A stretch of DNA of 64,000 nucleotides from an uncultured archaeon. Lineage in GTDB: Archaea; Aenigmatarchaeota; Aenigmatarchaeia; GW2011-AR5. Of the stretch, positions 5,193 through 11,402 are shown piece by piece. Location: the NCBI GenBank assembly GCA_964373695.1, contig CAYJVT010000001.1:22328-86327 (forward strand). Reading direction: 5' to 3'. A program made the position numbers and the translations under genes. The notes under the pieces were generated by a model that did not search any database, was not told the DNA's origin, and saw only the letters and a program-made list of their open reading frames with translations. Positions within the stretch are counted from its first letter, which is position 1. The number at the start of each line of letters is the position of its first letter.

Positions 5193-6202
5193 TTGTTGTC
5201 GACGGCTCTCATGGTGAGGGGGGCGGCCAGATACTGAGGACCTCGCTTGCATTGTCCGCAGTCACCGGCGAGCCGTGTAAAATCTTGAACATAAGGAAAG
5301 GCAGGCAGAACCCGGGCATGCAGGCGCAGCATGTGGAGGCTGCAAAAGCCTTGGCCCAACTGTGCGATGCTGAAACAAGTGGCCTTCATCTTCATTCATC
5401 TGAACTTGAATTTGTTCCGCATGACATAAAGGGCGGCAATATACGTATTTTCATCCCCACTGCAGGCTCAGTTGCACTCGTTCTTCAGGGAATCATGATA
5501 GCGTCCCTTCGCGCGAAGAAGGGAGTTTCCGTGAGGATAGAGGGAGGCGCCACCCATGGAAAGTGGGCGCCCTCGGTGGTATATGCAAAGAACATCCTGC
5601 TGCCGCTCCTTTCAAAGATGGATTATGAGGGCTACATAGATGTGGAGAAGTACGGCTACTATCCAAAGGGCGGCGCCAGCGTGTCCTGCAACTTTGCCCC
5701 GAAAAAGCTGAAACCACTTGAGCTCATTGAAAGGGGGAAGGTGCTGTCAGTTGAGGGGGTTTCCCACGCATCCAAGCTTCTGGAGAAATCCCATGTAGCC
5801 GAGAGGCAGAAGAAATCCTGCGTGGAACACATGGAGAAGAACGGGTTTGAATGCAGGATATTCGATTCTTATTTCAACACAGTATGCGAGGGCTCCGCCG
5901 TCGACCTCTGGGCGAGAACGGAGAACTCTTTTCTTGGCGCCGACGGGCTTGGAGAAAAAGGGATGCGCGCGGAGGATGTCGGGAAGTGTGCGGCCGAAAA
6001 GCTCGTCGCTCTGCTGAAGGCCGGTGCCGCCCTGGACGAGCATGCGGAAGACCAGCTCCTTCCCTACATCGCCCTTGCAGGCGGCAGCTTCAGTTATCAT
6101 CACCTGACGCCGCACACGCGCACCAACATGCATGTGATAGAGAAATTCCTTCCAGTGAAATTCTCAATAGGTGAAAATATCATTTCATGCCGGGGCTCAT
6201 GA
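5189..6202 (+). CDS. rtcA: RNA 3'-terminal phosphate cyclase
   Basis: 337 aa starting [32 protein letters not shown]..., the canonical RtcA N-terminus. A His-containing active-site region is present. Confidence 0.9.
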   Translation: [337 protein letters not shown]

Positions 6203-6748
6203 GGAAAACTTCATTTTCAGGTATTCTGCTATCGCGTGGCATATGAAGGAATGGACCGGTTCTATTATTGTGTAGTCGTTGTCATCCACTACAATGCAGT
6301 GCCCGGCGATTTTCTTGAGCATCCCGCCGGTAGAGCCTGTCAATCCGACTGTGGTTGCGCCTTTTTCTTTCGCGTACTCCACAGACTTGACAATGTTACG
6401 AGAGTTTCCCTTTGAGCTTATCGCTACGAGAACGTCATGTCCGTTCACGTTATGGATTCTCAGCTGTTCTGAAAAAACGTCGTCATACGATATGTCGTTT
6501 GAGATTGTTGTCATGAGGGATATGTTGACGGTGAGTGGTATGACATTGAACTGCTTTTTCGGCTTTGTATACGTGACGAGGTCGTTCGAAAAATGGGACG
6601 CTATGGAGGCGCTGCCGCCGTTGCCGCATATGAAGACCCTTCCGGCGCTCCCGTAAGTATTAAGCATGATATCCGCGATTTCATTTATCTTCTGATGCTC
6701 CAGGGAATTCAGGGCCTTGATATACATCTGCGTCATTTCCTGGAACAT
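6197..6748 (-). CDS. gmhA: SIS-domain phosphoheptose isomerase (D-sedoheptulose-7-phosphate isomerase)
   Basis: 183 aa with ...AGRVFICGNGGSASIASHFSNDL... (GmhA-type SIS motif) and the right size for GmhA. It is the last gene of the minus-strand heptose operon. Confidence 0.7.
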   Translation of the reverse strand: MFQEMTQMYIKALNSLEHQKINEIADIMLNTYGSAGRVFICGNGGSASIASHFSNDLVTYTKPKKQFNVIPLTVNISLMTTISNDISYDDVFSEQLRIHNVNGHDVLVAISSKGNSRNIVKSVEYAKEKGATTVGLTGSTGGMLKKIAGHCIVVDDNDYTIIEPVHSFICHAIAEYLKMKFSS

Positions 6749-6817
6749 AAATATGTCTTCCGTGGTGATTACTAAAGGGTTTTGCGTATGAATGCTTCGC
6801 CCATGAAATATCTTTCT

Positions 6818-7456
6818 TCACACCATAGCGCTCTTCTGGCTGCTTGCCATCGCCTGCTTTATGACGAAATCGACGCCGCCCGATTTCGCGGCGCCGTGGC
6901 CTGGAAAAAGGTATGAGATGCCCAGTTCCGAGAGCTTCTGGAGGGATTTGACCATGTCATCCCTGCTGCCGCCCGGGAAATCCGTCCTGCCTGATACTGT
7001 ATCGCCCGATATGAGTATCCTTTTCGCTCTCTCGTAGAGGCACACAGAGCCTGGCGTGTGCCCCGGAGTATGCAGTACTTCGAACCTGAAATTCTTTGTC
7101 TTTATGGCGGACTTGTCCTTCAGGAGCCTGTCAACAGTTGTCACCCGCGGCCTTTCGCCAAAAACCTCCGCAAGTGTCTCGCCGCTTTCAAGGCAGTCCT
7201 TGTCTTTCTGGTGTATGTATATCTCGGAGCCCAGCCAGTCCCTGAATTTCTTGTTCCCGCCTGTGTGGTCAAAGTGATGGTGCGTGTTTATTATGCTCTT
7301 GAGGCTCATTATGTCGGATATCGACTCTATCTCTCTTTTCATCTCATAAAAGAATCTCCCTGTGCCGGTGTCGATTATAAGCTCGTCATCCACGACATAG
7401 ACGTTGCAGTCGCCCTCAACGCCGGGCAGGACATGTATGTTTCTGAAGACCTGCAT
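6818..7456 (-). CDS. Metallo-beta-lactamase fold hydrolase
   Basis: 212 aa with INTHHHFDHTGG (HxHxDH) and a downstream ...HTPGHTPGS... metal-ligand motif. Confidence 0.7.
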   Translation of the reverse strand: MQVFRNIHVLPGVEGDCNVYVVDDELIIDTGTGRFFYEMKREIESISDIMSLKSIINTHHHFDHTGGNKKFRDWLGSEIYIHQKDKDCLESGETLAEVFGERPRVTTVDRLLKDKSAIKTKNFRFEVLHTPGHTPGSVCLYERAKRILISGDTVSGRTDFPGGSRDDMVKSLQKLSELGISYLFPGHGAAKSGGVDFVIKQAMASSQKSAMV

Positions 7457-10311: not shown

Positions 10312-10314
10312 CAC

Positions 10315-10385
10315 ACCACCGTATTGAAATAGTATGAAAAAGTATGAAACTCAAATTATTTAAGCGGTAGTCCCATATTCTGCAG
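10315..10385. promoter_or_regulatory. Bidirectional promoter region with tandem direct repeat agtatgaaa (10331-10339, 10341-10349) and AT-rich TATA-like box aaattatttaag (10353-10364)
   Basis: 71-bp gap between the divergent RHH-NTase and hddA-like genes. The repeats sit immediately upstream of the RHH-NTase start. Confidence 0.4.
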
Positions 10386-11402
10386 ATGGTAATCAGGAGC
10401 AGGTCCCCGGTGAGGATATCCTTTGCCGGAGGGGGGACAGATGTGCCCCCGTATAGGGATGAAAAGGGCGGGTGCGTCGTTTCAGCGACGATAAACAAAT
10501 ACGCCTACGCGACGCTGGAGCAGCGCAACGACAGCAACATACACATACATTCCGCCGATTTCCTGAAGAGCTTGGCTTTCAAGAACACGGCCGAAATCGA
10601 ATACAATAACGAACTCGACCTTCTCAAGGCCGTGATAAAGAAGATGGCGCCTTCTGCCGGCATGAACATATTCATGAGGTGCGATGTCCCGCCGAAATCC
10701 GGGCTGGGCAGCAGCGCGGCCGCGTTTGCCGCCATGATAGGGCTGTTCAATCACATGAGAAAGGAAAGAAGGATGACGGATTATGAAGTGGCGGAACTGG
10801 CATACAGGCTTGAGAGGGAGGAGCTTAAGGTGGGCCGCGGGAACCAGGACCAGTATGCAACGGTTTTCGGCGGGATGAATTTCATAGAATTCGGGGAAGG
10901 CTGGGTGAAGGTCAACCCGCTGAGGATGAAAAAGGACCACTTGCTTGAGCTTGAAAAGCATCTTATCCTCGCGTACATAAAGCCGCGGCAGGACGAAAGC
11001 AGCAACATCATAGACGACCAGACGAACCGTTACATATCCGGCGATACGAGGACTGTGGAGGGCCTCGACAAGGCGAAGGAAGTGGCTGTCGAGATGAGAT
11101 ATGCCCTCCTCGGCGGCGACCTGATGCGGTTCGGCGAACTCCTCAATGAGGGTTGGGAGGCAAAGAAGAAGTTTTCGCCGCTCATCAGCAACAGGTATAT
11201 AGACGATATTTACGACCTGGCGAGGAGGAACGGCGCCCTCGGAGGGAAGATTACTGGAGCCGGTGGATCCGGCTTTTTCCTTTTTTTCTGCGAACCCAAC
11301 AAGGAGCATGTCCTAACAGACGTGCTGGAGAAATCGGGGCTCAAGCCCATGACTTTCACGTTCGACCACGACGGGCTTCAGACATGGGAAGTAAACAAGT
11401 GA
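10386..11402 (+). CDS. hddA: GHMP-family sugar kinase, D-glycero-D-manno-heptose-7-phosphate kinase-like
   Basis: 338 aa: MVIRSRSPVRISFAGGGTDVPPY... (HddA/GmhB-kinase-type N-terminus), a GHMP motif PPKSGLGSSAAAFAAM, and a C-terminal GAGGSGFFLFF. Confidence 0.75.
   Translation: MVIRSRSPVRISFAGGGTDVPPYRDEKGGCVVSATINKYAYATLEQRNDSNIHIHSADFLKSLAFKNTAEIEYNNELDLLKAVIKKMAPSAGMNIFMRCDVPPKSGLGSSAAAFAAMIGLFNHMRKERRMTDYEVAELAYRLEREELKVGRGNQDQYATVFGGMNFIEFGEGWVKVNPLRMKKDHLLELEKHLILAYIKPRQDESSNIIDDQTNRYISGDTRTVEGLDKAKEVAVEMRYALLGGDLMRFGELLNEGWEAKKKFSPLISNRYIDDIYDLARRNGALGGKITGAGGSGFFLFFCEPNKEHVLTDVLEKSGLKPMTFTFDHDGLQTWEVNK

Follow-up and report, generated by a model that had tools for sequence, protein, structure and literature searches.

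The 64-kb stretch of DNA analysed here, referred to below as the window, derives from an Aenigmarchaeota (DPANN) archaeon whose nearest genome is GCA_016180925.1, and it contains nine divergently arranged genes that we discuss as a predicted unit for nucleotide-activated heptose together with its putative regulator. On the minus strand, in the direction of transcription, lie the gene for the predicted regulator RHH_NT277 (9481-10311/10314; 276/277 residues), in which a ribbon-helix-helix (RHH) domain precedes a nucleotidyltransferase (NTase) domain; a sugar-1-phosphate nucleotidyltransferase, NT231 (8789-9484; 231 residues); a 157-residue, mildly acidic protein (8281-8754; pI 5.2); a Cys-rich DUF2797 protein (7481-8290; 269 residues, 11 Cys); a hydrolase of the metallo-beta-lactamase (MBL) fold and YcbL/GloC type (6818-7456; 212 residues, motif HHHFDH); and a divergent copy of a GmhA-like SIS protein (6197-6748; 183 residues). 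The plus strand carries an HddA-like GHMP kinase (10386-11402; 338 residues), an 85-residue open reading frame (ORF; 11412-11669) and a nucleotide-sugar epimerase of the short-chain dehydrogenase/reductase (SDR) family (11759-12676). RHH_NT277 likely starts at the ATG at 10311 rather than at 10314. An earlier reading of this DNA, the original prediction, had described the region as a GDP-heptose operon and had taken the three genes embedded in it, those for the 157-residue, Cys-rich and MBL-fold proteins, to be probable functional partners of the pathway. Its ORFs and their coordinates were all recovered, its domain calls agree with Pfam and NCBIfam, and the minus-strand overlaps at 9481-9484 and 8281-8290 are real; the remaining gaps in the operon measure 24-69 nucleotides (nt).

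Compared with the closest genome and sister locus L009, the nine genes of the divergent unit have ratios of nonsynonymous to synonymous substitution (dN/dS) of 0.06-0.26, so that all of them, the small ORFs included, are real coding genes under purifying selection. The ratio is 0.14 for the 157-residue ORF, 0.26 for the 85-residue ORF and 0.064, the lowest of the locus, for RHH_NT277.

A predicted RHH-nucleotidyltransferase regulator and its operator

The original prediction counted two HddC-like nucleotidyltransferases at the locus. NT231 does retain the catalytic signature, whereas the 277-residue protein proved to be an RHH domain joined to a degenerate NTase domain. Its N-terminus matches Pfam RHH_1 with 26.9 bits (cut-off 20.5) at residues 5-40, within a domain that spans about residues 3-45, and the segment ERVTITxKxDxLxxID...RNRSHAIE is near-invariant among its orthologues, here termed RHH-NT proteins. 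The remainder matches Pfam NTP_transferase with 142 bits. In the P-loop, which reads GGEGVSLRP, the signature Arg of G-x-G-T-R-L is gone, and NVDT stands in place of (Y/N)GD. The same holds for the Aenigmarchaeota RHH-NT clade, in which NVDT accompanies either GGEG(V/A)xLRP or a deleted loop, the P-loop having been lost outright in about one third of the orthologues. NT231 and the fusions of GmhB to an NTase domain (GmhB-NT) in sister genomes retain GG(K/R)G(T/E)RLRP and GD.

The spacer between the divergent RHH_NT277 and hddA genes measures 71 base pairs (bp) and houses both a predicted operator and a TATA-like box. The operator (10320-10350, minus strand), TTTCATACTTTTTCATACTATTTCAATAC, consists of tandem TTCATAC heptads at 10-bp spacing and includes an exact TCATAC-N4-TCATAC at 10332-10347. 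The box, TTATTTAA (TTAAATAA on the minus strand), lies at 10356-10363, separated by 8 nt from the operator and by 22 nt from the ATG of hddA, and presumably functions as a promoter element.

In the window alone the operator is not significant, as its motif is found there once and occurs at least once in 12 of 100 shuffled sequences; its support comes from conservation across loci. The arrangement gCTTAAATA-n8-TTCATAC is kept in about 17 loci, and TCATAC-N4-TCATAC recurs in the equivalent spacers at loci where protein identity is no more than 45-60%, frequently flanking the TATA box on either side. The repeat is present in 51 of 95 RHH-NT promoters. Over all loci, 56 of the 72 motif matches fall, in sense orientation, into the last 130 nt before an RHH-NT start, a zone that makes up 0.55% of the sequence. 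This is a very large enrichment, although the phylogenetic kinship of the loci deprives any nominal probability of meaning. The operator also stands upstream of RHH-NT genes in lineages without a heptose kinase or the three-gene cassette described below.

A metagenome scan anchored on the RHH-NT protein (alignment A4) gave at least 571 relatives, and 80 loci were read. The family divides into two branches, an Aenigmarchaeota branch, which is degenerate and located at the heptose divergon, and a distant, motif-complete branch. Members of the latter (43-48% identical) have intact GGKGTRLRP and NGD motifs and are usually followed by a phosphomannomutase-like gene (FRAYDIRG). They often carry the same TCATAC-N4-TCATAC about 57-60 nt upstream (e.g. 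L095:8001-10417, L127, L133; L076-L138); no hddA, DUF2797 or MBL gene was seen nearby, and in some of these loci ribulose-phosphate epimerase (RPE) and transketolase genes, or gmhA, gmhB and an epimerase gene, lie upstream. Among 50%-identity representatives, a set biased to Aenigmarchaeota-type sequences, 9 of 99 P-loops are canonical; in the metagenome set the distant clade is mostly canonical. Members occur in addition in Diapherotrites and in a bin labelled Parcubacteria. In the literature searched we found no description of RHH-nucleotidyltransferase fusions.

To judge from these sequences, the distant branch looks like an autoregulated enzyme-repressor family in DPANN-like genomes, and the window protein would be a ligand-sensing pseudoenzyme derived from such an autoregulated enzyme. 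RHH_NT277 is thus most likely a regulator, an RHH domain fused to a degenerate NTase domain and encoded behind a conserved operator; its RHH domain is expected to bind the TTCATAC heptads in the way that RHH repressors bind short repeats.

A single TTCATAC heptad also occurs in the spacer between the MBL and gmhA-like genes (6786-6792, minus strand), about 10 nt upstream of a TTTAGTAA box. Unlike the rest of the spacer, which diverges, heptad and box are kept in the window, L009, L005 and L010; the heptad alone occurs 19 times in the window. The pair could possibly form an internal promoter or half-operator for gmhA.

Enzymes of the heptose module and their surroundings

By sequence comparison the kinase is clearly an HddA-like heptose-7-phosphate kinase. 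It matches the NCBIfam HddA model NF049969 over residues 1-336 of 338 with 249.6 bits (curated cut-off 600), the fucokinase model coming second with 100 bits. In the PDB the heptose kinases 3K85 (231 bits), WcbL (4USK/4USM; 219-221 bits) and 4N3O (195 bits) lead, and other GHMP kinases reach at most 75 bits (fucokinase 75, mevalonate kinase 45); the Pfam domains GHMP_N and GHMP_C score 60 and 44 bits. The SIS protein (Pfam SIS_2, 76.5 bits; phosphate-binding loop ICGNGGSA) groups with GmhA and not with DiaA. Among NCBIfam models it matches TIGR00441 gmhA best, with 120.7 bits (DiaA 81.9), and its top 12 PDB sequences are phosphoheptose isomerases, with Campylobacter jejuni GmhA 1TK9 the best at 102 bits and DiaA at 74. 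Aligned to 1TK9 it has Glu replaced by Asp, Gln by Glu and STSG by SSKG (Ser to Lys), both His being retained; GmhA copies elsewhere in the Aenigmarchaeota share 31-43% of its residues. GmhA of sister loci is canonical in its RIQEIH motif. Both groupings agree with the original prediction.

The same prediction had taken GDP as the activating nucleotide, which the comparison does not support. NT231 (Pfam NTP_transferase, 172 bits) has intact GKGTRLLPLT and YGDN motifs and resembles in this the GmhB-NT fusions from sister genomes; its identity to the NT domain of these fusions is 34-40%. Its best PDB match is 8X7S (150 bits), annotated as a UTP-glucose-1-phosphate uridylyltransferase, and the HddC structures 5XHW/6JQ8 score 64 bits. 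The NCBIfam HddC model NF049965 (cut-off 300) gives 96 bits for NT231 and 103 for RHH_NT277, and is the top model for neither. As far as motifs and matches tell, NT231 is a generic, motif-complete sugar-1-phosphate nucleotidyltransferase, not specifically HddC-like, and probably acts on heptose 1-phosphate at this locus; for GDP the sole argument is the analogy to pathways of the HddA type. The SDR protein is likewise, by its matches, a generic C4-epimerase-like enzyme: it reaches 196 bits with Pfam Epimerase, does best among NCBIfam models with heptose_epim (175 bits, cut-off 275; GalE 152), and in the PDB proteins of the 6WJB/WbpP/WbgU type (150-167 bits) rank above HldD 3SXP (128 bits). With the closing gene of the hddA-gmhA-gmhB/NT-epimerase operons in sister genomes it shares 58-63% identity.

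As originally predicted, no GmhB-type phosphatase gene adjoins the unit, and haloacid dehalogenase coding capacity lies elsewhere. No GmhB homologue was found in the 64 kb at E < 1 (tblastn with two Aenigmarchaeota GmhB queries), nor were HldE and transketolase found in the window. The only ORF found there with a haloacid dehalogenase (HAD) motif encodes an HAD-IA-like hydrolase (32926-33594, plus strand; a DxD regular-expression match, IMLDLDNT...GDDEEKD). It has no similarity to GmhB, and it would be a speculative candidate for the 7-phosphatase. There is a precedent in C. jejuni for a gmhB outside the heptose cluster (PMC10680097). Taken together, sequence comparison supports a real heptose-activation module, an archaeal member of a known pathway. 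Enzymes of nucleoside diphosphate (NDP) heptose synthesis are already known in archaea (PMC11461863), and a heptose-containing N-glycan has been documented there (PMC11407970); no description of heptose in Aenigmarchaeota was found in the literature searched.

The 85-residue ORF has no Pfam or NCBIfam match and is clade-specific, with relatives in L009 and L010 only (78% and 56% identity). It stands where sister genomes have gmhA and gmhB-NT.

To the right of the heptose unit follow two GT4-type glycosyltransferase genes (12668-13780 and 13726-14724), a Wzx-like flippase gene (14721-16220) and a carbamoyltransferase gene (16281-18038), named after the Pfam annotation of their orthologues in L001; these genes are the start of a larger glycan island. 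On the left flank an RtcA gene (5189-6202), convergent with the SIS gene, is followed by genes for a beta-CASP protein and TyrRS. The 3' ends of the gmhA-like and RtcA genes share 6 nt (6197-6202), so there is no space for a terminator between them. In L001, from the closest genome, a gene of 434 codons past the beta-CASP gene (16371-17675) occupies the position that TyrRS has in the window; its product has a faint LAGLIDADG_3 match. No RNA family was found at E <= 0.1 in positions 5000-13000 (Rfam), and no tRNA in the 64-kb window.

The 157-residue/DUF2797/MBL cassette across genomes

Profile searches gave names to two of the three proteins of unassigned function, the DUF2797 and the YcbL-type MBL protein, but not to the 157-residue protein, which has no Pfam or NCBIfam match. 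The DUF2797 protein matches Pfam PF10977 with 54.5 bits (cut-off 25) over profile positions 9-221 of 227; all 22 of its aligned relatives match the family too. We collected 61 homologues, mostly from Aenigmarchaeota, and alignment A1 has 53 invariant columns, a conserved block LKVGIS..R...RL.EQGAD.GAK...DG..R..E and eight invariant Cys (C-x11-C-x11-C-x2-C-x8-C-x2-C-x4-C-x8-C), which are predicted to form two Zn sites. The AlphaFold2 (AF2) model, with a mean predicted local confidence (pLDDT) of 86, comprises an N-terminal beta domain, the Cys-rich segment, a beta-beta-alpha-beta-alpha core and a small C-terminal barrel. Foldseek against the PDB matched only this Sm/SH3-like barrel (E >= 0.4), a PDB profile search was empty, Pfam at E <= 10 returned DUF2797 alone, and weak matches in a viral library (E 0.002-1) are to homing-endonuclease, T5orf172 and GIY-YIG proteins. 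The exact sequence of the window protein is not on record, and no description of DUF2797 function was found in the literature searched. In Flavobacteria DUF2797 is a core gene linked to GH3 (PMC9425974), and its association with Zn-protease, M1 and rhomboid domains comes from a language-model study (PMC12804078). Its neighbours in other archaea include genes for phosphoenolpyruvate carboxylase, radical SAM, aminotransferase, GT2, amidohydrolase and TraB-family proteins. In Nanohaloarchaeota (L055:7334-8741, L054) a TraB/PrgY/GumN-family gene overlaps the DUF2797 start, in the position of the 157-residue family. This parallel hints at a protease-like partner, encoded upstream, for DUF2797 in general.

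A word-indexed search had given the 157-residue protein three near-identical matches, and we considered it an orphan; BLAST among related loci and a profile search led us to reject this. It belongs to a fast-evolving, Aenigmarchaeota-specific family (21-49% identity) whose members usually have 190-205 residues, the window copy being about 45 residues shorter than this norm. Its AF2 model (pLDDT 84) has weak zincin-like Foldseek matches in the PDB (E 0.4-1, TM 0.3-0.5), among them selecase, jannalysin, YbeY and M1 peptidases. The family has no invariant residues of catalytic type: in place of HExxH the window protein has TRQLF and relatives have HELFR, HQxxH and others, with no invariant His or Glu. 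The MBL protein (Pfam Lactamase_B, 97 bits; motif THHHFDH) is by sequence a short hydrolase of the YcbL/GloC type, with 2XF4 (74 bits) its best PDB match, followed by 7EV5, 7L0B and 2ZWR. It was considered as a general replacement for GmhB, which we reject, since it coexists with GmhB or GmhB-NT fusions in most loci; such a replacement is possible in the window's own clade. No glycosyltransferase, epimerase or phosphatase fold was detected in the three proteins.

The three genes were followed through other genomes by a scan anchored on DUF2797 (alignment A1), which gave at least 50 loci whose ORFs were compared by BLAST and clustering. These comprise 41 Aenigmarchaeota-type loci (L009-L049), with DUF2797 37-89% identical, and nine distant loci (24-30%) from Thorarchaeota, Micrarchaeota, Halobacteriales, Nanohaloarchaeota and unclassified archaea. 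The unknown ORFs of the window are conserved in the orthologous loci. A gene of the 157-residue family lies immediately upstream of DUF2797, overlapping or abutting it, in 29 of 37 adequately flanked loci, and the MBL gene is found at most three genes downstream in 29 of 34 adequately flanked Aenigmarchaeota loci. One flank of this cassette holds RtcA, beta-CASP and TyrRS genes, frequently accompanied by Hsp20 and PolX; of the 29 loci with at least 4 kb of downstream flank, 22 have RtcA. On the other flank stand heptose genes in 23 of 41 loci, 17 of the HddA type and six of the HldE type. HldE-type loci encode a PfkB kinase (289 bits on rfaE_dom_I), a cytidylyltransferase-like protein (187 bits on rfaE_dom_II, above the cut-off) and a GmhB-like HAD protein. 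HddA-type loci often have HddA-GmhA and GmhB-NT fusions, and sister genomes hold complete four-step sets; the suppliers of sedoheptulose 7-phosphate, transketolase, RPE and RpiB, are frequently in the same cluster.

Individual fusions include GmhB-NTase of about 416 residues (L012:5554-6804), HddA-GmhA of about 530 (L014:4320-5912) and HldE domain I-GmhA of about 502 (L013:1760-3268). An ORF of 688 codons (L018:2727-4793) joins GmhB-NTase to the N-terminal half of transketolase and may be an artefact of assembly or a frameshift.

Three arrangements recur. In arrangement A, hddA diverges from a run of RHH-NT, 157-residue-family, DUF2797 and MBL genes, so that the cassette lies behind RHH-NT on the operator-bearing promoter. 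In arrangement B, RHH-NT and the MBL gene directly downstream of it diverge from an hddA-gmhA-gmhB-NT-epimerase operon, and the 157-residue/DUF2797 pair, which converges on the MBL gene, has no operator. In arrangement C the cassette diverges from the split hldE genes, domain I being the nearer. The RHH-NT-anchored metagenome loci reproduce A and B. In L013, L016, L022, L024 and L047, which are all five loci with HldE domain I as divergent neighbour of the cassette, the operator stands directly upstream of the 157-residue-family gene, 23-82 nt before its called start. L023, the sole HddA-type locus without an RHH-NT gene, is also without the operator.

Two HldE-type genomes carry a divergent RHH-NT-like paralogue about 7 kb from the cassette (L022:2-646 and L024:1-741). 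It has the RHH strand KIAISLSKD, a deleted P-loop and a retained SGD, and adjoins genes for UDP-glucose dehydrogenase and a canonical NTase.

The embedding from which partnership had been deduced is confined to the genus-level clade of the window: a gmhA gene past the MBL gene occurs only in the window and its close relatives L001-L010, and in other Aenigmarchaeota gmhA accompanies the kinase, the cassette being a neighbour of the heptose genes rather than enclosed by them. The embedding is therefore a clade-specific rearrangement. Moreover, the well-flanked loci L011, L032, L042 and L046 have the cassette or DUF2797 but no heptose gene in a radius of about 8 kb, and the housekeeping flank is equally conserved, a sign that the region simply rearranges slowly. 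Co-regulation fares better than catalytic partnership: it is supported by the shared operator-bearing promoter and by the association with two kinase systems, but no sugar-modifying fold was found.

The three proteins could still be true partners of the heptose pathway, the MBL protein serving, for example, as 7-phosphatase or as hydrolase of a by-product, and DUF2797 with its upstream partner acting on, transferring or sensing the heptose nucleotide. Such a role would fit a cassette that adjoins heptose genes in most of the adequately flanked loci, next to two non-homologous kinase systems (HddA and HldE) and with an operator in common with them, and an MBL gene that stays with RHH-NT through rearrangements; the window clade, moreover, is without any GmhB. 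It fits less well with the loci just named that have no heptose gene nearby, with the coexistence of the MBL gene and free or fused GmhB in most genomes, with the two heptose-positive loci that have no MBL gene (L025 and L031), and with the pair in arrangement B that has no operator. Outside the phylum, too, DUF2797 has unrelated neighbours, as in its link to GH3 in Flavobacteria (PMC9425974), and none of the three proteins has a sugar-enzyme fold. We regard such partnership as doubtful, though a possibility to be taken seriously.

The opposite extreme is that only synteny joins the two sets of genes. The cassette would then belong to the housekeeping block of RtcA, beta-CASP, TyrRS and Hsp20, with a role in, for example, RNA or protein processing, and would border a variable glycan island by chance; RHH_NT277 would be an ordinary active, autoregulated NTase from the wider RHH-NT family, with the heptads as its own site. 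RtcA is indeed about as conserved as the heptose side, the DUF2797 core has weak nuclease-like fold matches, and the distant RHH-NT clade combines complete motifs, a phosphomannomutase-like partner and the same operator without cassette or kinase. Yet RtcA is convergent to the cassette and not co-transcribed with it, while the cassette is co-directional with the operator-bearing promoter, at gaps of 1-69 nt where RHH-NT heads the unit. The operator is retained before the cassette even where RHH-NT is absent, and it is specifically the Aenigmarchaeota RHH-NT clade that lost the signature Arg and GD, or the whole loop. We consider a purely syntenic association unlikely.

A proposed regulated heptose divergon and its relation to known systems

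The reading we favour, and hold to be somewhat probable, is that a separate, co-regulated cassette and an RHH-NT regulator are located at a heptose divergon. The region would be a divergent transcription unit for nucleotide-activated heptose, in which the pathway enzymes are identified by homology and their activities are deduced from it. The GmhA-like protein (6197-6748) would isomerize sedoheptulose 7-phosphate and the HddA-like kinase (10386-11402) would phosphorylate C1; the 7-phosphatase, apparently not encoded in the unit, would correspond to the GmhB domain that sister genomes fuse to an NTase. NT231 (8789-9484) would produce the NDP-heptose, the SDR enzyme (11759-12676) would modify it, and the downstream glycosyltransferase and flippase genes would make use of the product. 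RHH_NT277 would not be an enzyme of the pathway. Its RHH domain is predicted to bind the heptads at 10320-10350 beside the shared TATA box and its NTase-like domain to act as sensor of a sugar phosphate or NDP-sugar, so that the protein would feed back on both divergent promoters. The 157-residue protein, the DUF2797 protein translationally coupled to it and the MBL protein would form a separate, phylum-wide cassette, bordered by the heptose/glycan island on one side and by the housekeeping genes for RtcA, beta-CASP and TyrRS on the other. Its transcription would start, in most genomes, at the operator-controlled promoter, and it is thus likely to be co-regulated with heptose synthesis; its apparent embedding would result from the clade-specific move of gmhA to its far side. 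There is no indication that the cassette makes or modifies heptose.

Several observations weigh against this reading. In arrangement B the 157-residue/DUF2797 pair has no operator, only the MBL gene remaining directly downstream of RHH-NT. The operator is present in five of the six HldE-type loci, yet the sequence retrieved for these shows no RHH-NT gene close by, and the operator in divergent spacers could serve the kinase operon alone. The kinship of the loci means that all counts overstate the number of independent events. One Aenigmarchaeota-type RHH-NT orthologue, L070, retains G-T-R-L, and RHH_NT277 itself keeps the Lys of PKPL and much of the NTase fold, so that it may have residual catalytic activity; that it binds DNA, senses a ligand and has lost catalysis is in each case read from its sequence. 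On the enzyme side, GmhA, HddA, NT231 and the epimerase are all under the NCBIfam equivalog cut-offs (for the SIS protein 120.7 against 209.45 bits), no GmhB homologue was found in the 64 kb, and the window GmhA has substitutions at substrate or metal positions. We take the catalytic and metal residues of GmhA to be Glu65, Gln172 and His180 (Escherichia coli numbering).

Another reading is that the product is not heptose at all, and that the SIS protein and GHMP kinase act on another keto-sugar phosphate, leading to another nucleotide sugar. The shortfall from the equivalog cut-offs, the changes from Glu to Asp, Gln to Glu and Ser to Lys at what are presumably substrate or metal positions, and the nearness of NT231 to a structure annotated as a uridylyltransferase would agree with this. 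Against it, the kinase matches HddA-type kinases end to end and far above other GHMP kinases, sister clusters add GmhB, canonical GmhA (RIQEIH) and enzymes producing sedoheptulose 7-phosphate, and both NDP-heptose enzymes and heptose glycans are known in archaea (PMC11461863; PMC11407970). We therefore think a product other than heptose very improbable.

A bolder extension of the favoured divergon model appears quite unlikely to us, namely that the 157-residue, DUF2797 and MBL proteins form a heptose-responsive system, switched on by an NDP-heptose-sensing pseudo-nucleotidyltransferase repressor and acting on a heptose metabolite or a heptosylated macromolecule. In such a system the MBL protein may be, for example, a non-HAD heptose-bisphosphate phosphatase in the clade that has no GmhB, and a heptosylated macromolecule may be acted on by DUF2797, as a nuclease-like Zn-ribbon protein, together with its partner, which resembles a degenerate protease. 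If true, this would provide a first function for DUF2797 and tie it to archaeal surface-sugar metabolism.

Archaea were already known to synthesize heptose nucleotides, so the enzyme set taken alone adds one more case to an established pathway. The novelty lies in the predicted layer of control: RHH-fused sugar nucleotidyltransferases form a family that numbers at least 571 relatives in metagenomes and shares a TCATAC-repeat operator, and we regard the RHH-fused putative pseudo-NTase regulator with its conserved operator as the most interesting result. If correct, it would represent feedback regulation by nucleotide sugars in DPANN archaea and an enzyme turned into a ligand-sensing repressor. 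DUF2797, for its part, gains a defined partner gene, an operon and a candidate regulator in one phylum.

The window resembles the HddA-type heptose pathway in combining an isomerase like GmhA, a GHMP kinase like HddA and an NTase of the RmlA fold with a subsequent SDR modifier and glycosyltransferases, and a GmhB gene outside the cluster would have its parallel in C. jejuni. It differs in its DPANN archaeal host, in the scores of all its proteins below curated cut-offs, in having no GmhB detected in 64 kb, where sister genomes fuse GmhB to NTase and HddA to GmhA, and in its predicted control by an RHH-fused pseudo-NTase. The ADP-heptose pathway (HldE/RfaE, GmhA, GmhB) is represented in other Aenigmarchaeota, which place split HldE domains I and II, GmhA and GmhB in the corresponding position beside the cassette, whereas the window uses the GHMP (HddA) route and not the PfkB (HldE) route. 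Cross-kingdom NDP-heptose biosynthetic enzymes have been described (Tang et al., 2024), and archaeal synthesis is documented according to the summary of that work in PMC11461863; in the papers that our searches found, neither the RHH-NT regulator nor the cassette is described.

The 269-residue protein is a full-length member of Pfam DUF2797 (PF10977) with the conserved Cys clusters. It is distinguished here by a lineage-specific partner gene upstream and an MBL gene downstream, in place of the GH3, the Zn-protease, M1 and rhomboid domains or the TraB-like gene with which the family is associated elsewhere. The MBL protein resembles the glyoxalase-II-like YcbL/GloC proteins (2XF4, 7L0B, 2ZWR) in its length of about 210 residues, its HxHxDH motif and its best sequence matches. 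Its context differs from theirs in that, to our knowledge, glutathione thioesters are not expected in archaea.

Several proteins combine a repressor with an enzyme or sensor. PutA joins an RHH domain to proline catabolic enzymes, NikR joins one to a metal-sensing domain, and BirA is an analogous enzyme-repressor. Like PutA and NikR, RHH_NT277 has an N-terminal RHH domain, short repeats at helical spacing in its own promoter and a C-terminal domain predicted to bind a metabolite. In contrast to them, its partner domain has the fold of a sugar-1-phosphate nucleotidyltransferase, and the RHH-NT family is split between an apparent pseudoenzyme in the Aenigmarchaeota branch and a wider branch in which the catalytic motifs are retained.

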